Shown: in pieces, positions 8,199 through 36,869 of the stretch
How positions within the stretch are numbered: the first letter of the stretch is position 1
Layout: the number at the start of each line of letters is the position of its first letter
Source of the DNA: a virus
Lineage: Duplodnaviria > Heunggongvirae > Uroviricota > Caudoviricetes
Length of the DNA stretch: 39,664 nucleotides
Direction: 5' to 3' (one strand)
Virus record (IMG/VR): IMGVR_UViG_2563366953_000005
Span: 1 to 39,664 of that record
Program-made: the position numbers and the translations under genes
Notes under the pieces: model-generated
Told to the model about the DNA's origin: nothing
Seen by the model: the letters and a program-made list of their open reading frames with translations, nothing else
The model's database searches: none

Positions 8199-10673
8199 TT
8201 ATTGCGGAGTGACATCCTGAGGTCGCCACCAGTATGTCTGGTTAAACTCTTTCTTCGAACGTTGCTCCATTTTACGCAAATAGCCTGGTGAAAAATACTC
8301 CTGCATCTGGTTAAAGATCATGTGATCGAGAGCCGCCTTCAAGTACCAGAGATTCGCACCAGGCATCAGGCCTTTCCCCAGCTTAACCAGATCACCACCA
8401 GTCTGCTCATTCTTCCCTTCCACAGCATTTAACGGTATGCCCTGAGAAATCTTCACTACGTCATCAACCAGACCAGCTACCGGGCCAAGCATCGACGCCA
8501 GCGCGCCGCTTCCGTACCTAGTGTGATCTGACAATAAAAAGTCACCGTAAAGGCCAAGACCACCACCTTTCAGTAGAGCACCAAGCCAAAATTTAGCAGC
8601 ATCTTCTCCTGTCATCTCGCGAGGATTACGACCAGACGCAAGGTCGTTAAGTTGCTGCGACAAAGCGCCAAGAATGGTCGTACTGGCAATAAACGTCGCA
8701 ATATATGCCGCACGCCCACCAGCAGACGGCATACCCATAGCGCGTGACCAGTGACGCATAACCACCGAGATAGGGAACGATTTAAACAGGAAAACACTTC
8801 TCGTTAATTCACCTTTCCATGTTCCACGCTGAATACCAGAACCGGTTATCAGTTGCTCACGTGCTCCCGGTGTAATAACAGCCATATCAACTTCTTCAGT
8901 TACGGCACCGAGCAGTTTACGCATTGCCTCAAATTTCACGCGTTCAGGCTCACCAAGATGTTTAACTGCTGAATCAGGGATACGCATAATGCTTTCCGGT
9001 GTCAGCATCGTATTATTACCGTCCCCCCAATCCTCCTGTTGTGCCAGCTTCCATACGCTCCAGTCTGTGTCAGTAATCCCTTTGCTTTTCAGGATACGAA
9101 AATCAGAGTCATCGAGGCTACGAAGGTCTGGTGTCCGTGACACTACTTCTCCCAGGCTTCCCATCATGGTTACGCCATAGGCGCGCTTGTGCGCATCTGA
9201 CCATGCTGTAAGCCCACTGGCACGCATTACCGCCGTTGCCGCCCAACGAGACACTGACGGCCCCATATTATCCATCGCCCAGCGGTTAACGCTGCCAAGT
9301 AGAGATTCCATCGCCAGACCAGCGCGGCGCGCCCGCGCAAGTTCTGTACGGTTCGTTGGGTCCATAGCTTCAAGCTGGTTGCGGAATAACTGGTTCATTG
9401 GAAGGTTGGTCACCTTCGCAGACAGATACATGGTTCCAAGATCAGAGAACGATGATAGCAACGCAGATCCGAGTCTGCTGGCAACCAGCCAGTTGCGGAT
9501 ATTGTCAGACCATCGCGCGATGTGCGGATTCGCTACAGGCTGTGTCTTTCCGGAAATAAAGTTGTACAGATTCTCTGTGTTGTTCGCCAGCCGCTCGACT
9601 TTACCGGTTTTACTCGGGTTAGCTGTTGCCGTTTCTGCCTTCACCTGATCAAGAAGAGAGCGGAAAACATGATCGGGGTTTGGGCCATATGTTTCCACCA
9701 GTGCAATATCTTTACTGATACCTTCCAGGTGACCGACCATGATTTCCCATAGAGAGCGATCGCCATAAAGTTGCTGATATTGCAGATAGGAATCTGCATC
9801 TTTGAAATGTATCTGTCGTGATGCATTACCACGGTTAGCACGTGCGCCGGAAATTCGCATTCCGGTATCAGTAAGCTTATTCAGCCCACCAGTAGCGATC
9901 GTGTTATAAGCCTCTCCAAGAAATGCAGACAACTCGGCATCGTTCATCAGTTGTCCATCGGCTCGGATATAATATTTGCGATCCAGCTTACCTATAACAT
10001 CGCTAACCCACTTATCCTTTGATACCGCCCCAACCTTTTCCATAGAATGATGTTGAGGGAACCCCCAGTTTTCGAGATAGCCAATGTCCCCACCAGCATC
10101 ATTAAACCGGCGGCGCAGTAGATCTGTCACTTCTCTCCACGCCTTAGCACCTTTTCTTGCTTTAGCATTGCCAGTATTTTGCCCTCGCATTTCATATACC
10201 AGGTCACGTACGCCCGCTTCATCTTCAAACAGACCAAAAAAGCGAGGATCAACTGCTTCGAATGCCTCCTGCAATTGACTCAATGCATAATCACGAGTGG
10301 CTTTTGTTCTGGACTCAACAGAGAGGAAATTCGATTTACCGTCTGCATTAAAAGCAATAGTACGGTTAAGAGCGCCAAGTTTCCCATCAGCCCCTTGATA
10401 GCTATTGATAAATTTATCCAATCTCTGACGTGCGGCTATAGTGAGGGCCACACGACGTTTCTTTAATGCCGCTTCTCGCTGTAATTCTTCAGATGCCAAT
10501 TGTGCTGCACGATATAGCCGCTCTGATTCGGAAAGTTGTCTCCACGACATCGGGTCATCACGAGCAATGGAGCGCATATTTCGATAAATGCGGTCTTCAA
10601 TGTTCTGTATTTCTCGCGCCGTTAACGTGCGCTGCGCCGCCTGCTGGACCGCTTGTATACATTCCTGTCTCAT
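8199..10673 (-). CDS. Internal virion / ejection protein (large)
   Basis: 824 aa; position after the other internal-protein genes and before the tailspike, as for the large ejection proteins of T7-like podoviruses; no specific catalytic motif recognised. Confidence 0.45.
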   Translation of the reverse strand: MRQECIQAVQQAAQRTLTAREIQNIEDRIYRNMRSIARDDPMSWRQLSESERLYRAAQLASEELQREAALKKRRVALTIAARQRLDKFINSYQGADGKLGALNRTIAFNADGKSNFLSVESRTKATRDYALSQLQEAFEAVDPRFFGLFEDEAGVRDLVYEMRGQNTGNAKARKGAKAWREVTDLLRRRFNDAGGDIGYLENWGFPQHHSMEKVGAVSKDKWVSDVIGKLDRKYYIRADGQLMNDAELSAFLGEAYNTIATGGLNKLTDTGMRISGARANRGNASRQIHFKDADSYLQYQQLYGDRSLWEIMVGHLEGISKDIALVETYGPNPDHVFRSLLDQVKAETATANPSKTGKVERLANNTENLYNFISGKTQPVANPHIARWSDNIRNWLVASRLGSALLSSFSDLGTMYLSAKVTNLPMNQLFRNQLEAMDPTNRTELARARRAGLAMESLLGSVNRWAMDNMGPSVSRWAATAVMRASGLTAWSDAHKRAYGVTMMGSLGEVVSRTPDLRSLDDSDFRILKSKGITDTDWSVWKLAQQEDWGDGNNTMLTPESIMRIPDSAVKHLGEPERVKFEAMRKLLGAVTEEVDMAVITPGAREQLITGSGIQRGTWKGELTRSVFLFKSFPISVVMRHWSRAMGMPSAGGRAAYIATFIASTTILGALSQQLNDLASGRNPREMTGEDAAKFWLGALLKGGGLGLYGDFLLSDHTRYGSGALASMLGPVAGLVDDVVKISQGIPLNAVEGKNEQTGGDLVKLGKGLMPGANLWYLKAALDHMIFNQMQEYFSPGYLRKMEQRSKKEFNQTYWWRPQDVTPQ

Positions 10674-21994: not shown

Positions 21995-22287
21995 TCCTGT
22001 TCACTGGCCTCTTTGGCCATCTTCAAATACTGTTCAGGGCAATGCGCCATAACGCGCTGAAACAGTTCCAGCGCCAGATTGCGTTGCCCCTCATTAAATG
22101 CCATTGCCATAGCGTCCATCGGTGAGATAGCGGAAAACACACGGCCTTTCTCCAGCACCGACCAGACAACGCGACGCCCCTGTTCACTGCTCATGACAAA
22201 GCGAATGTCATCAATTTCACGCTGCGCCATGTCACGTTGCTTACGGGCGTTTTCTTCTTTCAGTTGATCGTCTTCGTAATCTGTCAT
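21991..22287 (-). CDS. Small head-assembly protein of unknown function
   Basis: 98 aa; overlaps portal stop and scaffold start (translational coupling). Confidence 0.35.
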   Translation of the reverse strand: MTDYEDDQLKEENARKQRDMAQREIDDIRFVMSSEQGRRVVWSVLEKGRVFSAISPMDAMAMAFNEGQRNLALELFQRVMAHCPEQYLKMAKEASEQE

Positions 22288-23963
22288 TGTGATTGCCCAC
22301 CCTGACCACTAACTGCATTCGCCATAGCTGACAAAACACTCGGATCCGAAGTTTTAGCTTCGCTTAGCGTCTTGGCACCCTGTGCCGCCGCCATACCCAT
22401 CGCCATCATTTGTTGCTGCTGTTGTTGCTGTGCCCGTTGCTGGCGAGCCTGCTCAACCTGTTCCTGCGGAACAATGACGGTTGGAGACACTCCGGACATA
22501 TCAGCGAATGCATCGATCGCCTGATCAACGTTGAGTTTGTCGAGAGCTTCTGGTTTCGCTTGCGCAAGTTGACCAATGAAGTTAACCGTGGACGCCAGAC
22601 TGGACAGGCCGATAGACTTCTGCGCCTGAGCCATGACGGAAATGTATTCGACCTTCAGGGGCATACCTTCCATCACGTCTGGCGGTGGCGGCAGCATGTT
22701 TTTACGCACCATCATCGAGAAAGCGCGGTCAATGAGAGGATTAAGACATTCGTCGTTCAGACGCTCCAGAACCGGACCCAACATCAGAAGTTTTTCTTCT
22801 TTCATTTCGATCACCGCTTCAACAGGCATCGAGCGGGTATTGATGTTCTGCAACATCATGAACAGATCGACAAAGTAGGCGCTGTTAATGATTTGACGAG
22901 TGTCCTGAATGTCTGCTACCAGATCTGCTGTACTGGGGTTAACCAGATAAGCAGGCCTGAAACCATCCTGACCAGTAATCTGATCGATATACGTGATGTC
23001 GCCAGGAAGAAGGGAGGCGCGCTGATTCTTGAGGGAAGTCGGAGCAACCATCGGCGGATTGGTGGCTTTATCAATCAACTGCGACTTGCGCTTCTGGAGA
23101 AGCTGCAATGCCTTAACAGGTCCAAGCGCCAGCATACCCGGGCATGATGATCCATAAACATCTTCGCCGTTAACTTCCCAGCGCGGAGCCATAATTGGAA
23201 ACTCATCGAATCCGGACTCACGCAACAACTTGTCGTTATCGCCACCAACCTCGTAATAAACCGATTTGAATGGCTTGTTCTTGCTATCCAGCTTCGATGT
23301 ATCGCGGTCAATGTTCGGGTAAACCGAATGCATCACTTCAATCCACTTCTCGTAGGTGCCGCTTTCCCACATGCTTTTTACGGATTCGCTGACGTTATTT
23401 AGCCCGAACTCCTGAACAAGCTGACGAACAGTCATAGAGAACTTGCGAAAACAGGTGTCCACACTGCCACGAGGTGAGTTAGCCAGGTAGTAACTGCCTA
23501 TCGGGAATGGCATTGTGCGAATGATGTCCTCGTCATCCTCCAGCACTGCCATTGCACCAGTGCTGTATGTGCCGAGGCTTCCGTATAACTGCGGCAGCGA
23601 CTGATAGAGATTCGACTTATTGAACATATCGTTCATGCGGTTCTGCACCGCCTCAAGCCACAACTTAACAGGGCCATAATCCATCATTTCAGGATCTGGC
23701 GTAGCCAGGCGAAACCACGGACGCGCGGGGCTTGTGATGCCTGACATCATGCCGCTGGCGAGAGTGCGCTCCGCCATAGTCCCGGTCGAATCAATAATGC
23801 GTGTATTGCGTCGATCGTTACGGTTGACCTCAGAAGTCAGAAAGCGGGAACCACGCGGGTTGATGTAATCACTCAACTCGCGCCAGTGCGGCTCGAACGA
23901 CTGACGCTCGCTTTCAAGTTGTGCGAACTGTTTGTTCAATCGCTCTTTAGTTGTTTCCGCCAT
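22284..23963 (-). CDS. Portal (head-to-tail connector) protein
   Basis: 559 aa; ATG preceded by ggagtcattgaa; size, position after terminase genes, and Gln/Ala-rich C-terminal tail fit podovirus connector proteins. Confidence 0.75.
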   Translation of the reverse strand: MAETTKERLNKQFAQLESERQSFEPHWRELSDYINPRGSRFLTSEVNRNDRRNTRIIDSTGTMAERTLASGMMSGITSPARPWFRLATPDPEMMDYGPVKLWLEAVQNRMNDMFNKSNLYQSLPQLYGSLGTYSTGAMAVLEDDEDIIRTMPFPIGSYYLANSPRGSVDTCFRKFSMTVRQLVQEFGLNNVSESVKSMWESGTYEKWIEVMHSVYPNIDRDTSKLDSKNKPFKSVYYEVGGDNDKLLRESGFDEFPIMAPRWEVNGEDVYGSSCPGMLALGPVKALQLLQKRKSQLIDKATNPPMVAPTSLKNQRASLLPGDITYIDQITGQDGFRPAYLVNPSTADLVADIQDTRQIINSAYFVDLFMMLQNINTRSMPVEAVIEMKEEKLLMLGPVLERLNDECLNPLIDRAFSMMVRKNMLPPPPDVMEGMPLKVEYISVMAQAQKSIGLSSLASTVNFIGQLAQAKPEALDKLNVDQAIDAFADMSGVSPTVIVPQEQVEQARQQRAQQQQQQQMMAMGMAAAQGAKTLSEAKTSDPSVLSAMANAVSGQGGQSQ

Positions 23964-23977
23964 TTCAATGACTCCGG

Positions 23978-24184
23978 TTACTGACCAAGTAGCGTTTTAC
24001 CGCTGGTATTAGCGGTTGATGTGTCGCCCTGAGAACCGGTAAGCAGCGTAGAACTACGACCAGCAGCAGCGCGACGGCGACGTGTTTCTTCGTCGCGGGC
24101 ATCAACAATGACGGCATCCTGCTCCTGTGGTGCTGCCTGAACTTCTGGTGTTGCAGGCACTGATGGTGAGCTACCCATGCACAT
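23978..24184 (-). CDS. Small low-complexity protein upstream of portal
   Basis: 68 aa; its start is preceded by the same 12-nt sequence cggagtcattga found before the portal start, suggesting a genuine translation initiation region; composition is low complexity, so coding status is uncertain. Confidence 0.35.
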   Translation of the reverse strand: MCMGSSPSVPATPEVQAAPQEQDAVIVDARDEETRRRRAAAGRSSTLLTGSQGDTSTANTSGKTLLGQ

Positions 24185-24252
24185 ATCAATGACTCCGTAC
24201 GCAATTAAATTATTACCAATTTAACCACATATGATTTATTTATCGTAGATAC

Positions 24253-24289
24253 TTGACATTTAATGCACTAATTATTACCTTTCAGGTAA
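24253..24289 (+). promoter_or_regulatory. Sigma70-like promoter with overlapping operator
   Basis: TTGACA at 24253-24258; operator-type palindrome TTACCTTTCAGGTAA at 24275-24289 overlapping the -10 region; points toward the tRNA unit. Confidence 0.45.
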
Positions 24290-24611
24290 GCAAAGAGTTC
24301 ATTCCGGTTATTAACCTGACTGGCTTGTCGTTAAATTGAACAGGTGGGGTGAGCTTTTATTTTGAGCAGTACGGTGTATGGCACATGCGCCGATAGCGGT
24401 CTGGATACGTTTAAGGGGCACCCTCCCTTGCTCGGGAAAACGAACCAGGTAGCCGGAATGTGCAAGTCGAGCGGTTTTATTCCGCGCACGGGGATTCACC
24501 ATCCCGGCGATTCGGTGTGACACCTCGGAAGAGACGAGGGTGCAACGATGAGAGCATTTATGGAGCCGCGACAAAGTGTGGTGCCTTAACAGGCTAAGTG
24601 CTCTCAGCGTT

Positions 24612-24688
24612 GTGGCATTAGCTCAGTTGGACAGAGCAACCGCCTTCTAAGCGGTTGGTCGCAGGTTCGAATCCTGCATGCCACGCCA
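24612..24688 (+). tRNA. tRNA-Arg (anticodon UCU)
   Basis: 77 nt; 7-bp acceptor stem GTGGCAT/ATGCCAC, D-arm GCTC-AGTTGGACA-GAGC, anticodon stem ACCGC/GCGGT with loop CTTCTAA (anticodon TCT), T-arm GCAGG-TTCGAAT-CCTGC, discriminator G and encoded CCA. Confidence 0.85.
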
Positions 24689-24731
24689 GAATCACGCCTA
24701 AGGACCGTGATGCCAGAAGTTCCAGGTGCTT

Positions 24732-24775
24732 GGCGGTGATGGTTTCCCTTGAAGGACTATCACCGCCCTTTTTAC
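24732..24775 (+). terminator. Terminator downstream of tRNA-Arg
   Basis: Stem ggcggtgat (24732-24740) pairs with atcaccgcc (24759-24767), followed by cttttt. Confidence 0.55.
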
Positions 24776-24851
24776 AGCAGGACGCCATTGCGATGACTTC
24801 ATGCTGTAAACCAGTACAGCCACGGAAGGCATAACTCATTGCTTCCAGTTC

Positions 24852-24875
24852 GCCCGGTTCGCCGGGCATTTTTTT
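24852..24875 (+). terminator. UUCG-tetraloop hairpin plus T7 tract abutting the RBS of the next gene
   Basis: gcccgg-ttcg-ccgggc then a ttttttt; the SD aaggtgag starts 1 nt after the T tract. Confidence 0.55.
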
Positions 24876-24886
24876 AAGGTGAGATT

Positions 24887-25243
24887 ATGAACGACCAGCA
24901 AATCGAAAAAGAAATCGTTGAGAAAGGCCAAACCGCTCCGCGAGTTACGCCTCAATATATCGAAAGCATCATTCTTGAAGAGCATTTCTTTACTGCTTAT
25001 GACGGCATTCGTGCTGCCAATATGGGCGTTGGCGATTCATGGACAGCGCATAAATCTACAGACCTCCTGACTTTCTGCGTACTGGTGCTGAAGAATGGCT
25101 TCACCGTCACCGGAGAGAGCGCCTGTGCAAGCCCGGAAAACTTTGATGCAGAAATTGGTCGGAAGATTGCCCGGCAGAATGCTGTAAACAAAATCTGGAC
25201 GCTCGAAGGTTACTTGCTGAAGCAGAAGCTAAGCGAGCAATAA
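24887..25243 (+). CDS. Orphan small phage protein of unknown function
   Basis: 118 aa; ATG with strong SD aaggtgag; plus-strand gene between terL and the tRNA, antisense to the late operon; followed by a terminator. Confidence 0.6.
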   Translation: MNDQQIEKEIVEKGQTAPRVTPQYIESIILEEHFFTAYDGIRAANMGVGDSWTAHKSTDLLTFCVLVLKNGFTVTGESACASPENFDAEIGRKIARQNAVNKIWTLEGYLLKQKLSEQ

Positions 25244-25263: not shown

Positions 25264-25290
25264 AGCCAGCCGATGAGCTGGCTTTGTTTT
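25264..25290 (+). terminator. Rho-independent terminator
   Basis: agccagc-cgatga-gctggct followed by ttgtttt. Confidence 0.6.
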
Positions 25291-25333: not shown

Positions 25334-26809
25334 TTAAGCATAGGGATCGTAATCTGTGATGGCCTTGCCTTGCTGGTTATGTTTCCCGGGAATTCGCAGG
25401 CGCTTCGACACAGGGAAAGCAAACGTCAGCAGTAGCGCATCGCCTTTACCAGGCGAACGCCCAAGTCGTTCTTTGATATCTTCCTTCGGTTCGATAACGA
25501 TTTTACCATCCACGCGAACTTTGTACTCTGCCGCCGACAGATCGTCCGCTGTTTCCTGGTCATCCAGCATCCCGCCCAACCTCAGCCATGTCTTGCATGA
25601 GTTGAACATCTCCCCGCGCTTGTTGAGCATCTGAGGGTCAGTTGACGCACCACCGAACGGAACAAGTTGCCATGTACGTCCCCAGCCATCACCGATTGAC
25701 TTCAAACCGGTTCCGTAACCGAAGTCGATGAATACCGCGTCAGCCTGATACTGGTCTTCAAAGTCAGCGATGCGCTTCGCCATAATCAGATCGTCGGTGG
25801 TCTTGTTGCCAGTCCACAGCACCTTACTATGCAACCCCTGCCGCAGGTATATCACCGCGTCATCAACGCCTGAATATGCCGGGTCAACACCGATTATCAC
25901 CGGAGCATGTGCCACCTGCGCAGCAGTTACCACCCGTTTCATTGCCTCATCAGTAAGACCGGTAGGGATAAACTGCAATTCAGATGCATCAGGGAATATG
26001 CCGCGCACACGGATTTTAACGAAGTCGCTATCTTCCCCGTAGTCATCAACCCATTTCTGCAACTGCTGTTTGTTAGTGCCTTCCACCGTCCGGCTGTCAA
26101 TCTGCGCAGTTTTCCAGCGGTGTTTATATTTGCGGAAACATTCGCGGAAACGCCCGGTGTTACGTGTAGGGTTTCCGAACGCCACCCAGATAATCTCAGT
26201 GTCTTCGTCCGTTAGCGCACCCTCGGCAACTTCCCACACCAGATCCGCAATGTTCGACGCTTCATCAAATACCACGATGATGCGTTTACGCTCGTTGTGT
26301 AGTCCGGCGAATGCCTCAGTGTTGTGCTCAGACCAGGGGATTGCGTCAGCTCGCCACCGCTTGTCGTGCCCAGGATCATTGCTGTACATCGCGGTAGCGG
26401 TACAGGTAAACCAGTCTTTCGTGATAGCAAAGTTCGACCACTTGATAATTTCCGGCCAGGTCTTCGTTCGTAGCTGGTTGTCGGTGTTGGCGGTCACCAC
26501 GACCTTACAATCCTCGCAAGTGGACATGCCCCAGTTGATCAGCATTGAGATGAATGCGGATTTACCAATACCGTGACCAGAAGCGCGTGCCAGCATAAGC
26601 GGCTGATAGCGCGTCTCTGGATTCTGCAGGTGATCACGTATCTCTCGGAACGCATCAGCCTGCCACTGACGTGGGCCGGTAGCATGTGCCAGTTCAGTCC
26701 CCTCTTCCCCCCACGGGAACGCATAGAGGGCATAGCCAAGAGGATCATGAGTGAATCCGGCAATATCCTCGATCAACTGTTCTTCAGGAGATAACGCTGC
26801 ATCTGTCAC
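25334..26809 (-). CDS. Terminase large subunit
   Basis: 491 aa; Walker-A-like ATPase motif (ASGHGIGKSAF) in the N-terminal domain and an acidic nuclease-type C-terminal domain; 4-bp overlap with the upstream small-subunit gene. Confidence 0.85.
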   Translation of the reverse strand: MTDAALSPEEQLIEDIAGFTHDPLGYALYAFPWGEEGTELAHATGPRQWQADAFREIRDHLQNPETRYQPLMLARASGHGIGKSAFISMLINWGMSTCEDCKVVVTANTDNQLRTKTWPEIIKWSNFAITKDWFTCTATAMYSNDPGHDKRWRADAIPWSEHNTEAFAGLHNERKRIIVVFDEASNIADLVWEVAEGALTDEDTEIIWVAFGNPTRNTGRFRECFRKYKHRWKTAQIDSRTVEGTNKQQLQKWVDDYGEDSDFVKIRVRGIFPDASELQFIPTGLTDEAMKRVVTAAQVAHAPVIIGVDPAYSGVDDAVIYLRQGLHSKVLWTGNKTTDDLIMAKRIADFEDQYQADAVFIDFGYGTGLKSIGDGWGRTWQLVPFGGASTDPQMLNKRGEMFNSCKTWLRLGGMLDDQETADDLSAAEYKVRVDGKIVIEPKEDIKERLGRSPGKGDALLLTFAFPVSKRLRIPGKHNQQGKAITDYDPYA

Positions 26810-27402
26810 TGATTACCACCCTGGCGTTCTTTGAGTCGCTTCCTGGCTGCTGCTATGCGATCTGCAATTGTCACATTCACATTAACATCCAGGCGTTCTT
26901 TAAACGCGTTAACATCAACATGCTTACCAATCAGCTCAAGGTTCTTCACCTTGTCAGGCCATTTAATTTTTTTGAGGATTGTCTCTATCGAATCCTCGTT
27001 CATGTTCATGATGGTCGATGACAGATCAAAGCCGCTAAGCGTAGTGCGCCATATTTTCGGCCACTCGCGGATTGGCTTAAGGCTCCCATCGTCGTTGAGG
27101 ATGTCGATCACGTCCATCTGGTCGATCTCCACCAGGCGCATAAGAACGTAATCGGCACTGACGCGCATTCGTTTGTTGCGTTCCTCCATTAGCTCGGCAA
27201 TCCGTTTCTGAATGCGTTCATCGCGCATCATAACACTGGCTTTAACTGCCGCTGTATTTGGAGAGAATCCTGCGTTAATCGCTGCCTGAGTCTGGTTTTC
27301 AGGCGTTTTGATGTATGACTGGCAATAAGCCTCCTGCATTGCTGTTAGTGGCTTAAATTGCGTTGATTTGCGTTTATAGGTTTTAGGTTCAGCAGGCATC
27401 AT
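26806..27402 (-). CDS. Terminase small subunit
   Basis: About 198 aa from the ATG at 27402 (the track ORF starts at an upstream TTG at 27480); HTH-like N-terminal region (TQAAINAGFSPNTAAVKASVMM) typical of small terminase subunits; exact start uncertain. Confidence 0.65.
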   Translation of the reverse strand: MMPAEPKTYKRKSTQFKPLTAMQEAYCQSYIKTPENQTQAAINAGFSPNTAAVKASVMMRDERIQKRIAELMEERNKRMRVSADYVLMRLVEIDQMDVIDILNDDGSLKPIREWPKIWRTTLSGFDLSSTIMNMNEDSIETILKKIKWPDKVKNLELIGKHVDVNAFKERLDVNVNVTIADRIAAARKRLKERQGGNQ

Positions 27403-27434
27403 AACCACCGTGGTAATAGTTACCATTGTGGTAA
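27402..27434. promoter_or_regulatory. Tandem operator-like palindromes at the terS start
   Basis: TAACCACCGTGGTAA (27402-27416) and TTACCATTGTGGTAA (27420-27434), both of TTACC-N5-GGTAA type. Confidence 0.4.
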
Positions 27435-27445
27435 TAGTACCATGC

Positions 27446-27471
27446 AAAATAAAGCCGCCATAGTTGGCGGC
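27446..27471 (-). terminator. Candidate terminator upstream of the late operon
   Basis: On the minus strand: gccgcca-acta-tggcggc followed by tttatttt. Confidence 0.4.
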
Positions 27472-27512
27472 AGTATTCAAAACCCATCAAATTCATCATG
27501 CATAATCTACTC

Positions 27513-31286: not shown

Positions 31287-31363
31287 TTACCTCTGAGGTA
31301 ATTAAAAACCACATAAGACACTAGATCAATAGATTTTAGAATATTTTATTACCCGACAGGTAA
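31287..31363. promoter_or_regulatory. Pair of operator-like palindromes in the P-to-nin intergenic region
   Basis: TTACCTCTGAGGTAA (31287-31301) and TTACCCGACAGGTAA (31349-31363) separated by AT-rich sequence. Confidence 0.45.
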
Positions 31364-31400: not shown

Positions 31401-32201
31401 TTACTTGATAAATCCTGCCTCCTTTCCCCGCCTGTATTCCTCCATAAGCCACTGCGCCGGTGTTATTCCACCCAGGGTGGCGGCATTAGGCATGCACCCG
31501 AAACTTCGCCCTGGTGGATGGTAAACGTCTCTCCCTGTGTCCGGAGGTGTACTCATGGGTTCTGGCTTTGCCTGTATGCTGATCACCGGATCGGGTATCT
31601 GCTGTCCTGAAGCCACCTTTTTCGCCCAATCATCGAGCAGCCTGCGCGCGTGTTTCTCAACCTCAATCTCGCTAAGCTGGCGCTGATACATTGCACGGCG
31701 GGTATCACATACGACCCAGTACATAACCGGATGTCGCCACGGGAATCTTTCGGGACCACCAGGATATAAACTTTTTTCCTTGCTGTACCGGTGAAACTCC
31801 GCCATCACATCGTCAATGGTGACACCAAGAACCATCTTGCTGTCTTTGCACCACTTGATAAATTGCCCAGGCGACGGCCAGAACGGAGATTCACTGGCGC
31901 GGGCATGGCGCATACCAGCAGAAACCTGTTCACGGGTTCGGATCCCCCCTTCGGCAAACGCAGCAATCCACTGCTGTTTTGCAGCAACTTCCTGCTCTGG
32001 CGTCTTCAGGTTGGTTACCACTGCCGCCGGAAACAGTTGTTTCAACTGTTTGAAAAGGGCATCAACAAGCCTCTCTGCTGACATGTTCACCACGTTGTCA
32101 TTGTTGGTGTACTGATGCTCATAACCTGACATGCGAGAAAGGGCTTCTCCGTCACGGTTTTGTATCGCGGTAAAAACGTTGTTCACAAGAAATCCTCCCA
32201 T
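31401..32201 (-). CDS. Replication protein P-like (helicase loader)
   Basis: 266 aa; central block QQWIAAFAEGGIRTREQVSAGMRHARASESPFWPSPGQFIKWC closely matches, from memory, the corresponding block of phage lambda P; downstream of the O-like gene as in lambdoid phages. Confidence 0.75.
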   Translation of the reverse strand: MGGFLVNNVFTAIQNRDGEALSRMSGYEHQYTNNDNVVNMSAERLVDALFKQLKQLFPAAVVTNLKTPEQEVAAKQQWIAAFAEGGIRTREQVSAGMRHARASESPFWPSPGQFIKWCKDSKMVLGVTIDDVMAEFHRYSKEKSLYPGGPERFPWRHPVMYWVVCDTRRAMYQRQLSEIEVEKHARRLLDDWAKKVASGQQIPDPVISIQAKPEPMSTPPDTGRDVYHPPGRSFGCMPNAATLGGITPAQWLMEEYRRGKEAGFIK

Positions 32202-32998
32202 GCTTCAGGGCTGTTCCAGTGCGGAACGTTGTTATCAGGTAATGTTGATTGCTTCTGTCTGCTAATCTGCAGCCTCCTTGCCAGCTTCTGCTCCCACTGT
32301 GCCTGATGGTATGCCTTACCCTCAGCCATCCAGTAAATTCTGAACTCTGCAAGTTCCTGTGCCGTTGGCAGACTATCCAGGTAGATTCCCTGCAATGAGC
32401 TTTTCCGAAGAAAGTCATCTGATGGCTGCCATTGTTCATGCATGACAAATTTGCCTAATTGCCCTGGCCCACCAGGAGGAACAAAGTTATTCATCACGGC
32501 GTTGTTTGCGCCGGGGTCATGATGCACAGAATCCCCGTTTTTTGTCCTGCTCTCCCTCTCTTGGTTAAATGACTGGTTATATGACTGGTTCTGGATCCCG
32601 TTTTTGGGATCATTCAACATCCCGTTTTTGGGATCATTCAACATCCCGTTTTTGGGTATATTCCCGTTTTCGGTAACATTACCGTTTTCGGGTTCATTAC
32701 CCCCCTCCCGGTTGCCTTTAATGTTCCCGTTTTTGGTTATATTAAGAGAGAAAACCCGCACTCTTTTCGTCGCTCCCTTTCTCTCTCCGGTATCTGAAAT
32801 AAGCCCCATTTTCATGAGCGATATAAGCCCGGCCTGCACGGTTTTTTTATTCAGGCAAGTGTCTTTAACGAGGCGTTCTATGCTGGGGTAGCAGAGGTTA
32901 TATTCATCGGCTCTGTCAGCCATCGAGAGCAGTATGAGCTTTAATGACGAGCTACCTGGATCTGTCTCCCAGGCCCAATCTGTTGCATGTCTGCTCAT
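32183..32998 (-). CDS. Replication initiator, O-like, with internal origin iterons
   Basis: 271 aa; N-terminal winged-helix/HTH-like region (LKLILLSMADRADEYNLCYPSIERLVKDTCLNKKTVQAGLISL); central tandem peptide repeats (KNGMLNDP x2 and variants) encoded by the DNA iterons; position upstream of P-like gene. Confidence 0.65.
   Translation of the reverse strand: MSRHATDWAWETDPGSSSLKLILLSMADRADEYNLCYPSIERLVKDTCLNKKTVQAGLISLMKMGLISDTGERKGATKRVRVFSLNITKNGNIKGNREGGNEPENGNVTENGNIPKNGMLNDPKNGMLNDPKNGIQNQSYNQSFNQERESRTKNGDSVHHDPGANNAVMNNFVPPGGPGQLGKFVMHEQWQPSDDFLRKSSLQGIYLDSLPTAQELAEFRIYWMAEGKAYHQAQWEQKLARRLQISRQKQSTLPDNNVPHWNSPEAWEDFL
32595..32743. repeat. Origin-type iteron array inside the O-like gene
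   Basis: Two perfect tandem 24-bp repeats atcccgtttttgggatcattcaac (32595-32618, 32619-32642) followed by four degenerate copies sharing the core cccgttttt/cgg. Confidence 0.7.
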
Positions 32999-33293: not shown

Positions 33294-33308
33294 TTACCTT
33301 TGAGGTAC
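33294..33308. promoter_or_regulatory. Operator-like palindrome TTACCTTTGAGGTAC
   Basis: One mismatch from TTACC-N5-GGTAA. Confidence 0.4.
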
Positions 33309-33630: not shown

Positions 33631-33693
33631 TCACCCATAAGGTAACAAAAATCAAGGATAGTTACCTGTGGGGTGCATTTACCTGTTGGGTAA
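33631..33693. promoter_or_regulatory. Immunity-region operator cluster (three TTACC-N5-GGTAA-type sites)
   Basis: TCACCCATAAGGTAA (33631-33645, 1 mismatch), TTACCTGTGGGGTGC (33662-33676, 2 mismatches), TTACCTGTTGGGTAA (33679-33693, perfect), between divergent Cro-like and repressor-like genes. Confidence 0.55.
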
Positions 33694-33748: not shown

Positions 33749-34333
33749 ATGAAAAGTATCCAGGACGTCCGCAGGCAAAATCTCAACGACTTGATCGACC
33801 GTGAATTCAATGGTGTTCAGACGCGGATGGCAGAAAAACTTGGAACTCAGGCAAATCTGGTAAACCGCTGGGCTCTTGGCAAGAAGGTTATCGGCGACCA
33901 GGTTGCGCGAAAAATTGAAGCTGCCGCCAATAAACCCCGTAACTGGCTTGATATCGATCGCTCGCTTTCTCAGGAAGGTTTTCAGCCTGTCGGCCCAAGC
34001 GACATTGGTCAGCTGGCGGCTCACAACCTGGAACGCTGGATGAGCGAAAGCCGCGACCTTTCAACGCAGGGAAAACTTCACCGCGCATCCGGCGTCGCCC
34101 AGGTGACAATCAGTCGCCTGTTAAACAATGAGGTCAGCGTTTCCATTTCCACCCTGGAGAATGTTGCATCCGCATTCGGGCGTCACGGATATGAACTACT
34201 GATTCACCCGCACGACCCTGCGACTATCAACTATGACCGCTCACGCTACGCATTGTTACCCGAAACCGAGAAAGCAAAGATCGAAAGTTACATTGAATTT
34301 GTCATCAACCAGAACGAAAAAAGCAAACAATAA
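33749..34333 (+). CDS. Prophage repressor-like protein with two HTH-like regions and no recognisable S24 peptidase domain
   Basis: 194 aa; N-terminal HTH (TRMAEKLGTQANLVNRWALGKKVIGDQVARKIE) and a second HTH-like segment (LHRASGVAQVTISRLLNNE); no Ala-Gly/GDSM/Lys signature of LexA-type autocleavage; position equivalent to cI. Confidence 0.55.
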   Translation: MKSIQDVRRQNLNDLIDREFNGVQTRMAEKLGTQANLVNRWALGKKVIGDQVARKIEAAANKPRNWLDIDRSLSQEGFQPVGPSDIGQLAAHNLERWMSESRDLSTQGKLHRASGVAQVTISRLLNNEVSVSISTLENVASAFGRHGYELLIHPHDPATINYDRSRYALLPETEKAKIESYIEFVINQNEKSKQ

Positions 34334-34390: not shown

Positions 34391-34467
34391 TTACCTTACG
34401 GGTAATTTTTTTAACTCATATCTATTGACACCAAACCAAATAAGCATAATTATTACCTCAACGGTAA
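34391..34467 (+). promoter_or_regulatory. PL-like promoter with two operators
   Basis: TTACCTTACGGGTAA (34391-34405), TTGACA (34425-34430), TTACCTCAACGGTAA (34453-34467) overlapping the -10/+1 region; drives the rightward recombination operon. Confidence 0.5.
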
Positions 34468-35846: not shown

Positions 35847-36869
35847 ATGTCTATCAATGCACTTAAGGCAGCGGCTACCGGTAACCAAGTTGCACATCAT
35901 AATGAGAAACCAACAACTCTGGCCGGACTTCTGGCAGACCCAAAAATTAAAGCTCAGATGGCTTTGGCACTTCCAAAGCACATGACAGCAGACCGTCTGG
36001 CGCGCATAGCAACCACAGAGATCCGAAAGGTTCCAAAACTTGCATCATGCGACCAAGCCAGCTTCCTGGGGGCAATTATGCAATGTGCCCAATTGGGTCT
36101 TGAACCAGGCGGAGCTCTTGGACACGCTTACCTGATACCGTTCGACAAACGCCAGAAAGTAAATGGAAGATGGGAAACCGTATCTACAGAAGCACAGCTG
36201 ATTATCGGCTATCGCGGAATGATTGACCTTGCCCGCCGCTCTGGGCAGATCCTGAGTATCTCGGCTCGTACCGTACATACAAACGACAAATTCAGCTACT
36301 CATACGGCCTGGAAGAAACGCTCGAGCATTTACCTTGCGAAACAGGTGACCGCGGAGAATTAACGCACGTTTACGCCGTTGCACGACTGAAAGATGGCGG
36401 AGTCCAATTTGAAGTTATGAGCCGGGCAGACATTGAGAAAGTTCGTGCACTGAGCAAAGCCGGTAGCAGTGGCCCATGGGTTGATCACTTCGATGAGATG
36501 GCTAAAAAAACAGTAATTCGCCGACTATTCAAATATCTTCCTGTTTCTATTGAAATGCAGAAGGCTGTTGTTATGGATGAGCGCGCTGAAGCTGGACTTA
36601 GCCAAGATAACGCAGCTGTTATCACTGGTGAATATTCCGTAGTTGACGATGAGCGTCAACACCTGTCGCCAATTTCAGATTCAGAACGAGAAGAAGCTCG
36701 AGAATATATCATCGCGATACTTAATAGCCTGGATCCATCTGCTGAAGATGCAAAAACGATGTTCAAGCGCGCTGAAAATGAGATTAACACCATGGCTGAA
36801 AAGCTCGGTGATGAATATCACCAAAAATTCATGATGACGCTTAACGATATGCGTCCAGAATTCGAGTAA
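35847..36869 (+). CDS. RecT-family single-strand annealing protein
   Basis: 340 aa; core region LGLEPGGALGHAYLIPF...IIGYRGMIDLARRSGQI typical of RecT/Bet-type recombinases; acidic C-terminal tail. Confidence 0.8.
   Translation: MSINALKAAATGNQVAHHNEKPTTLAGLLADPKIKAQMALALPKHMTADRLARIATTEIRKVPKLASCDQASFLGAIMQCAQLGLEPGGALGHAYLIPFDKRQKVNGRWETVSTEAQLIIGYRGMIDLARRSGQILSISARTVHTNDKFSYSYGLEETLEHLPCETGDRGELTHVYAVARLKDGGVQFEVMSRADIEKVRALSKAGSSGPWVDHFDEMAKKTVIRRLFKYLPVSIEMQKAVVMDERAEAGLSQDNAAVITGEYSVVDDERQHLSPISDSEREEAREYIIAILNSLDPSAEDAKTMFKRAENEINTMAEKLGDEYHQKFMMTLNDMRPEFE

Follow-up and report, generated by a model that had tools for sequence, protein, structure and literature searches.

A conserved structured RNA 5' of a tRNA-Arg(UCU) gene behind a putative repressor-controlled promoter of a Uetakevirus

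Introduction

Several phage RNAs with elaborate structure are known from genes that cluster with tRNA genes, namely ROOL, GOLLD and the stable RNAs 'species 1 and 2' of T4. The C4 RNAs of P1 and P7 and the CI RNA of P4 (RF01695) are regulatory and are matured by RNase P. The sites nutL in lambda and putL in HK022 lie tens of nucleotides (nt) past the early-left promoter. Here we describe a locus that shares traits with these systems. It occupies positions 24253-24775 of a viral DNA of 39,664 nt (IMG/VR virus record IMGVR_UViG_2563366953_000005, positions 1 to 39,664), which is called the window below. An earlier note, written from the sequence alone, had read this locus as a self-contained tRNA-Arg(UCU) transcription unit. 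That description is too narrow, for the ~320-nt stretch 5' of the tRNA holds a conserved, covarying RNA, which is mostly tRNA-less elsewhere. We propose, at a probability of about 0.5, that the locus is a repressor-controlled early RNA operon whose upstream RNA acts in trans.

The phage is a Uetakevirus, i.e. a podovirus of the epsilon15/phiV10 kind. The 1.5 kb surrounding the tRNA unit share 97-98% identity with prophages of many E. coli chromosomes, and 92-97% with the Uetakevirus phages phiV10, TL-2011b and ZX5 and with O157 typing phages 9 and 10. By this identity the label 'lambdoid', under which the locus was first discussed, is a loose one.

Results

A conserved structured RNA precedes the tRNA

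The ~430 nt between the tRNA and the neighbouring 68-aa open reading frame (ORF) contain no credible gene. Sensitive BLAST with 24185-24611 nevertheless returned 24371-24611 at 77-82% identity in unrelated phages, where the region is nearly always unannotated. Matches were obtained with lambdoid phages (cdtI, mEp460, mEp390, Stx2c phages), with P1-like elements (P1, P7, D6, SJ46, RCS47), with Klebsiella phage SopranoGao and with Stenotrophomonas phage BUCT708. The promoter-to-tRNA stretch is G+C-rich; its fold energy compared with shuffled sequences gave z = -2.75 on the plus strand and -1.66 on the minus strand.

A fold was derived from A2, an alignment of 25 diverse core sequences (coordinates in Table 1). 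In the core helices 97.2% of the cells are paired, compared with 88.4% after shuffling and 28-52% in slid controls. Both sides have changed in 11 of 26 pairs, with 52 such cells against 14 in the shuffled alignments. The covariation score of 0.301 (shuffled, 0.135) was reached in 0 of 500 shuffles. Four helices and the pseudoknot covary, and in the cdtI group the pseudoknot carries a compensatory change from C-G to A-U. All parts of the proposed family, i.e. P1, P2, P4, the pseudoknot, P5 and the conserved single-stranded blocks, are present in the window. On these comparisons 24368-24611 is judged to be a conserved structured RNA of ~245 nt and not spacer.

A gene for a small protein, such as the ones annotated in the records of mEp460 and mEp390, would also conserve the region, and so would a site acting at the DNA level. 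Hypothetical ORFs do lie over the element in some records, and the window itself has overlapping ORFs of 45-87 aa. Core lengths lie between 154 and 186 nt and differ by steps which are not multiples of three and which occur within hairpins only; a conserved reading frame is therefore excluded. On this indel pattern and on the compensatory nature of the stem substitutions the protein-coding reading was rejected. Moreover, strand and frame of the annotated ORFs change from record to record, while the orientation of the element to promoters is fixed. Among the alternatives considered here this one is the least probable. ORFs annotated as 'hypothetical proteins' over the tRNA or the RNA include 24618-24869 (-) and 24311-24574 (-) in the window, phiV10 p04, mEp460 gp37 and mEp390 gp36; with their changing strand and frame, these calls are almost certainly spurious.

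A covariance model built from A2, termed R1, detected a single copy per phage, with 149 bits for the window, 144 for cdtI and 139 for P1; the window is among its seed sequences and its E-values are rough. A weak R1 match at 35954-36094 on the minus strand (9.1 bits, E 0.2), opposite to the strand of the early-left genes, was taken as noise. Rfam 15 assigned 24350-24625 to no family even at E<=10, with ROOL, GOLLD, C4/CI, T-box and riboswitch families included, and, at gathering score, had no hit to the element in any of 14 further loci with a copy.

In having a pseudoknot, variable outer hairpins and long unpaired stretches that are near-invariant, the element is like a typical aptamer, and it stands in a 5' leader. 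It could in principle be a riboswitch-like sensor, which binds a host metabolite or signalling nucleotide and tunes downstream expression from the early leader. Against this, no alternative terminator/antiterminator pairing is linked to the core, no U-tract follows P6, Rfam riboswitches show no similarity, and the downstream genes are different and unrelated among the contexts. We regard a sensor as improbable. Two further candidates were looked at by eye and dropped with motif counts near chance, a CsrA sponge (GGA motifs) and a T-box-like specifier (AGA in the P5 loop); for the latter, the neighbouring tRNA-Arg is usually absent.

Distribution of the element

The exact 19-mer GGTAGCCGGAATGTGCAAG of the element was found in at least 120 IMG/VR contigs. 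In complete E. coli genomes the core is present in 1837 of 5426 (about a third), at 2470 places, 554 of them on plasmids, and it is never annotated. Species-representative genomes were scanned with a loose 17-base pattern. Genuine loci, 14 of 120 among the matches listed (the others being chance), came from Kosakonia, Enterobacter, Phytobacter, Escherichia whittamii, Superficieibacter, Citrobacter, Kluyvera, Klebsiella and Candidatus Erwinia.

The element is not essential. Epsilon15 (locus L006, 1810-1900) retains helix P1 and the 5' half of P2, fused to what is left of the terminator, its 3' half; the tRNA is lost. Since this deletion removed most of the core and the tRNA, the module appears to be dispensable for a viable phage and thus accessory. 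The deletion junction lies at the short repeat GGTTYCCCTTGA, of which one copy is part of the P2 hairpin and another of the terminator loop.

Searches of the literature by exact sequence and by topic returned no description of the upstream RNA. As Rfam and sequence annotation also hold no entry for it, it appears to be undescribed, but it may be among the 8495 unnamed IMG/VR candidates of PMC10690425. The Pas small RNAs were considered as a prior description and are a different entity.

P6 and the junction with the tRNA

The core is followed by the long stem P6, whose two basal pairs in the window use the tRNA nucleotides G1 and U2 (24612-24613). In 15 diverse variants, folded sequence by sequence, P6 retains 17-21 bp despite differences in both strands. 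Examples of strand pairs are GAUGAGAGCA/UGCUCUCAGC, GGUAAGAGCA/UGCUCUUUCC, GAGAGCGCACU/AGUGCGCUCC and AAUCAAAGAGCG/CGCUCUUUUUGAUU. The energies range from -19 to -33 kcal/mol, compared with about -10 kcal/mol when the 3' half is shuffled. P6 always ends with ...CGUU|GUGG, and the junction in the window is 24611/24612.

A tRNA on the same strand adjoins the element in 47 of 132 copies. It is either tRNA-Arg(UCU), which begins where P6 ends, or, in P1-like elements, tRNA-Ile2(CAU), ending ~14 nt 5' of helix P1. The other 85 copies have no adjoining tRNA. In tRNA-less copies GUGG opens a non-decoding cassette of 88-130 nt, in which 5' GUGGU pairs with 3' ...ACCAC, followed by AAC. The 3' strand of the cassette is often abutted by a hairpin in T-arm-like position, and the cassette of Klebsiella pneumoniae ATCC 13883 (L207) has a true T-arm, GCUGG-UUCGACU-CCAGC. 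In lambdoid prophages cassettes at the tRNA position were seen in L005, L008, L046, L075, L087, L119, L184 and L207. The case for these putative tRNA mimics rests on their recurrent ...CCAC-AAC signature. ARAGORN at relaxed threshold gave mostly noise for P6 inserts and cassettes. T-loops of the type GGUUCGAUUCC were noticed within some P6 inserts (L102, L106, L015).

Beyond the tRNA or cassette the similarity continues. The small hairpin AUCACG...CGUGAU also stands 3' of tRNAs or cassettes in several unrelated contexts, such as L046, L075, L087, L102 and L207. A terminator GGCGGU...ACCGCC with a U run follows ~320 nt past the 19-mer in 98 of 126 distinct contexts, among them all three types. 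The mobile unit therefore comprises the core, P6, a tRNA or tRNA mimic, and the terminator.

An acceptor/T-arm minihelix is what RNase P recognises, with a preference for U at position -1 and G at +1. Given these preferences, the simplest reading of the U|G junction is that GUU|GUGG would be a conserved RNase P site. The retention of non-decoding mimics suggests selection for processing, and hence for the upstream RNA, rather than for decoding.

In the lambdoid prophages L091, L048, L029 and L035 one or two genes for membrane proteins, on the opposite strand and directly after P5, take the place of P6. The site after P5 looks like a hot spot for the insertion of morons between the early-left promoter and the early genes.

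The tRNA and codon usage

The canonical 77-nt tRNA-Arg(UCU) with encoded CCA, which the earlier note had proposed to check with a tRNA finder, is accepted by ARAGORN (tRNA-Arg, anticodon tct at position 35) as the sole tRNA of the window. RF00005 of Rfam matches it with 73.3 bits (gathering score 29, E 2.4e-14). The identity elements for arginyl-tRNA synthetase (ArgRS) are A20, C35 and U36. The gene has A20 within the D-loop AGUUGGACA, anticodon UCU, discriminator G and a CCA 3' end; its sequence agrees with the identity rules of ArgRS, and expression and aminoacylation are predicted.

The tRNA gene and its setting are already known. tRNA-Arg is annotated in RefSeq E. coli prophages, in typing phage 9, in SPN9TCW, in SPC32H and in one Klebsiella relative, and the ZX5 paper speaks of 'one tRNA' (PMC9782041). 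The original phiV10 record has the spurious antisense ORF p04 in its place.

AGA accounts for 6.85 and AGG for 4.7 per 1000 codons of the window, jointly 19% of the arginine codons. E. coli uses AGA at ~2 and AGG at ~1 per 1000 codons. Against these host values AGA is about threefold enriched in the phage. Per-gene counts bear out the AGA/AGG enrichment, and the use of AGA by the acyltransferase gene, that had been expected from the sequence, with the excess concentrated in cargo. In the gene of the AT3-SGNH acyltransferase (3134-5152) 11 AGA and 7 AGG make up 72% of the arginine codons. An excess was also found in the 790-aa ORF 5180-7552, which from its position we take to be probably a tail fibre, and in the DnaT-domain replication gene 32183-32998. 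Both codons are nearly absent from capsid, portal and terminase genes.

With a canonical tRNA, enriched AGA/AGG codons and a phage (epsilon15) that lives without the region, the locus might be nothing but a tRNA-Arg(UCU) gene for rare-codon supply with a long, functionless 5' leader, as the earlier note implied. This is very unlikely. The leader is conserved more widely than the tRNA, which does not adjoin most copies, and the 69-82% identity among unrelated phages lies in the leader. Furthermore, its core helices show compensatory changes and the P6 stem is preserved.

Promoter, operator and terminators

The promoter claimed in the earlier note is present as far as TTGACA and a conserved hexamer pair are concerned: the -35 element matches the consensus at 6 of 6 positions and the -10-like TACCTT at 3 of 6. 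The TTGACA/TACCTT pair is kept 5' of the element in Uetakevirus relatives from Escherichia, Klebsiella and Salmonella.

The operator motif TTACC-N5-GGTAA, allowing one mismatch, occurs 12 times in the window, where 0.84 copies are expected; 12 copies were reached in 0 of 100 shuffles. The 15-mer at the tRNA unit is identical to that at 7657-7671, which lies 5' of plus-strand ORFs (7682-8220). Operator pairs at 33631/33679 (48-nt spacing) and 34391/34453 (62-nt spacing) bracket the helix-turn-helix (HTH) repressor gene 33749-34333, and a further pair at 31287/31349 has 62-nt spacing. The homologous site of epsilon15 is labelled as a 'repressor' binding site in GenBank. Thus, the excess of the motif, the copies around the repressor gene and the annotated epsilon15 counterpart give good support to an operator over the promoter. 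By the positions of its sites the repressor seems to control the immunity region and several accessory units. At 27402-27434 two copies fall within the 5'-terminal part of terS. For a phage tRNA, control by a repressor had been called unusual, but it has a precedent: the annotation of the P1 record already places tRNAs in the C1-controlled ban operon.

The proposed hairpin and T-tract terminator is there as well. Its 14-bp stem has 7 G-C pairs and is followed by CTTTTT. The second terminator-like hairpin, further downstream, is conserved in epsilon15 and is annotated there as a rho-independent terminator.

Placement at early promoters

In 71 of 144 copies the element lies directly 3' of a CI-like (HTH + S24) repressor gene on the same strand. 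In addition, 31 copies are in the Uetakevirus position and ~11 precede the Ban helicase of P1-like elements. In cdtI the cI stop is followed by an intrinsic terminator, a near-consensus promoter TTGACA-16-CATAAT and, ~50 nt past the -10, the element. The promoter is overlapped by operators ATGTACC...ATACAT, which are the same as in the cI/cro intergenic region. A promoter-element spacing of 48-55 nt was also observed in other immunity types. Because of this spacing of ~50 nt to the early-left promoter, the element is predicted to be the first thing transcribed from the repressor-controlled early-left promoter of lambdoids. In phage P1 the neighbours of the element in the C1-controlled ban operon are trnI and ban, and in the window it begins 90 nt past the operator-overlapped promoter. 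For all three settings we predict no expression of the element in the lysogen and its immediate synthesis upon infection or induction.

Some side observations concern the same operons. A dicF-like region is annotated at the start of the ban operon of P1 (L004, 269-370), which holds three tRNAs and the element; this operon has unusually many non-coding RNA genes. In the early-right region of cdtI (L005, 277-465, minus strand) Rfam finds a C4 antisense RNA (68 bits) beside an isrK RNA (60 bits), both unrelated to the element.

Such a placement is also that of antitermination sites. The element could be a processive antiterminator or anti-Rho leader, which acts in cis like put of HK022 and lets RNA polymerase read past the terminators that follow. 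In the window these would be 24732-24775 and 24852-24875. The lambdoid counterparts would be the terminator and the inserted morons that precede the early-left genes. The lambdoid core stands ~50 nt past the early-left promoter, where nutL and putL sit, and the element is always co-oriented with the downstream early genes. Terminator-like hairpins come after it in the 98 of 126 contexts given above, and the Gp49 gene of the window is behind two of them. The early-left operon of cdtI has no annotated N gene, and the P1 copy is immediately 5' of ban inside a long, partly untranslated operon.

Other observations disagree with an antiterminator. Neither a motif match nor an R1 match was found in HK022 (22000-40751), and homology to putL or putR was rejected on this result. 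Furthermore, put is present in both early operons, while the window and the complete cdtI genome have one copy of the element each. In lambda nut sites boxA (CGCUCUUA / UGCUCUUUAACAA) stands next to a boxB hairpin. A near-consensus boxA follows the element in 2 of 117 contexts only and was therefore dropped as a general feature. The 3' strand of P6 shares with boxA only UGCUCU, which is base-paired. An exact boxA of the rrn type, TGCTCTTTAACAA, was seen 129 nt past the 19-mer in L091. Beyond the terminator of the module itself, no strong intrinsic terminators were found in the early-left operon of cdtI. Besides, the terminator travels with the module like the end of an RNA gene, and the conserved junction with a tRNA or tRNA-like cassette points to a discrete, released RNA. 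We consider a cis-acting antiterminator rather unlikely, though it is the rival to be taken most seriously.

Neighbouring genes

That the unit is inserted into a minus-strand block was stated correctly in the earlier note, as terS, terL and portal all are on this strand; the insert is larger than the tRNA unit and also carries the Gp49 gene. The remaining features are compiled in Table 1. The AT3-SGNH protein has twice the length of phiV10 Oac, and its gene is likely to be O-antigen-modifying cargo of foreign composition.

Table 1 Features of the RNA unit and of the gene map, with positions in the window
Feature	Position	Strand	Basis or remark
Putative sigma-70 promoter	24253-24281	+	Read from the sequence; -35 TTGACA 24253-24258, 17-nt spacer, -10-like TACCTT 24276-24281
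Repressor operator palindrome TTACCTTTCAGGTAA	24275-24289	strandless	Overlaps -10 and predicted transcription start
5' leader, predicted start to conserved core	24290-24367	+	Conserved in Uetakevirus relatives only
Structured RNA core, P1-P5 and pseudoknot	24368-24547	+	Alignments A1 and A2; covariation; covariance model R1
P1, 8-bp hairpin, loop GGCAC	24372-24379/24385-24392	+	
P2, closing a variable hairpin	24399-24403/24446-24450	+	
Near-invariant single strand GGUAGCCGGAAUGUGCAAG	24448-24466	+	Second variable hairpin next
P4	24491-24494/24502-24505	+	
Pseudoknot, P4 loop CACC with GGUG	24497-24500/24514-24517	+	
P5, loop GGAAGAGA	24523-24527/24535-24539	+	
P6, long stem	24542-24613	+	5' strand 24542-24561, 3' strand 24592-24613, hypervariable insert 24562-24591
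tRNA-Arg(UCU), 77 nt	24612-24688	+	ARAGORN; Rfam RF00005; annotated in relatives; encoded CCA 24686-24688
Small hairpin AUCACG-CCUAAGGAC-CGUGAU	24691-24711	+	3' of the tRNA
Intrinsic terminator	24732-24775	+	14-bp stem 24732-24767, then T-tract CTTTTTACAG
Second terminator-like hairpin GCCCGGTTCGCCGGGC + T7	24852-24875	+	Directly 5' of the Gp49 ribosome-binding site
Gp49/Sf6-gp66 family gene (PF13876)	24887-25243	+	Pfam E 3.9e-34; co-oriented with the RNA unit
Terminator 3' of the Gp49 gene	25264-25283	+	
terL	25334-26809	-	Local gene map
terS	26806-27480	-	Local gene map
68-aa ORF, epsilon15 gp3 homologue	23978-24184	-	
Portal	22284-23963	-	
AT3 + SGNH O-acyltransferase, 672 aa	3134-5152	+	
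HTH repressor gene	33749-34333		
Further operator copies	3169-3183; 7657-7671; 27402-27434; 31287-31363; 33294-33308; 33631-33693; 34391-34467		

Discussion

In the model that we favour, 24253-24775 is an early operon for RNA. The operator-overlapped promoter would be silent in the lysogen and fire upon infection or induction. The transcript would contain, in this order, the leader, the pseudoknotted RNA of ~245 nt (P1-P5 and P6), tRNA-Arg(UCU), the small hairpin and the intrinsic terminator. A cut by RNase P at GUU|GUGG (24611/24612) would generate the 5' end of the tRNA and free the upstream RNA, which the long P6 helix should stabilise by enclosing its 3' end. The tRNA may aid the decoding of AGA and, weakly, of AGG, which are enriched in cargo and in some late genes. 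The upstream RNA would be an independent module, which unrelated phages have set directly behind repressor-controlled early promoters. As a discrete RNA it may, soon after the onset of lytic growth, target a conserved host component in trans, either for take-over or for counter-defence.

A trans-acting RNA is favoured because of the processing architecture, the terminator of its own, the invariant single-stranded blocks and the dispensability of the module. As these blocks are near-invariant in phages without common neighbour proteins, a conserved host partner is indicated. More specifically, the 245-nt RNA could represent a new class of early RNAs, released by RNase P at a tRNA or tRNA mimic joined to them, which at the very start of lytic growth bind a conserved host machine and reprogram it, or protect against it. 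This more specific idea is a tentative one. Candidate targets would be RNA polymerase, the ribosome, tRNA-processing enzymes or a tRNA-targeting defence nuclease.

Several points weigh against the model. The promoter of the window, with its weak -10, was not listed by the consensus scan, so that this part of the earlier promoter claim is less secure. We infer RNase P cleavage from the geometry of the junction. The acceptor-stem statistic for the cassettes, with G-U pairs and free positioning, was no better than for shuffled sequences. The copy of phage P1 has no P6 and lies directly before ban, like a leader rather than a released RNA. Most copies were fetched by the exact 19-mer, so that the invariance of this one block is partly built in; among independently retrieved copies the 19-mer was exact in 12 of 14. 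Finally, the 5' location in early operons, before terminators and co-oriented genes, fits a cis element equally well.

The tRNA alone is routine, the RNA 5' of it is not. It is among the most widespread conserved non-coding elements of E. coli prophages and P1-like plasmids. From its placement at early promoters and from the way it joins a tRNA or tRNA mimic, a concrete, testable model for a stable early phage RNA can be derived. If it acts on host machinery or defence, an RNA player would be added to the earliest phase of temperate phages. Should the more specific, tentative idea of a new RNA class be correct, about a third of complete E. coli genomes would carry an RNA-only factor for take-over or counter-defence. 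If it is an antiterminator instead, it would be the second RNA-only antitermination system after put.

Compared with the known systems, the locus combines features of several. It has the same UCU tRNA as other phage tRNA genes of the argU-like type, in an AGA/AGG-rich phage, and shares the repressor-controlled operon with the ban tRNAs of P1. In contrast to these, the tRNA is fused base-to-base to a structured RNA, and other phages keep a tRNA-like cassette at this place. Like put of HK022 and nut of lambda, the element lies tens of nt past an early-left promoter, is co-oriented with early genes and is followed by terminators, but it is about three times larger than put. With the C4 and CI RNAs it has in common the proposed maturation by RNase P at a tRNA-like structure and the tie to immunity and early-expression circuitry. 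However, the C4 model of Rfam gave no match at the locus, though a true C4 RNA was found elsewhere in cdtI. With ROOL, GOLLD and the T4 RNAs it shares the location in phages and prophages, an ornate conserved structure and the linkage to tRNA. Unlike these, it has no Rfam match, is far smaller (~245 nt), enterobacterial, and stands behind repressor-controlled early promoters. Thus, judged from its sequence and predicted fold, the upstream RNA resembles ROOL, GOLLD, the T4 RNAs, C4 and CI in kind and is a member of none of these families.

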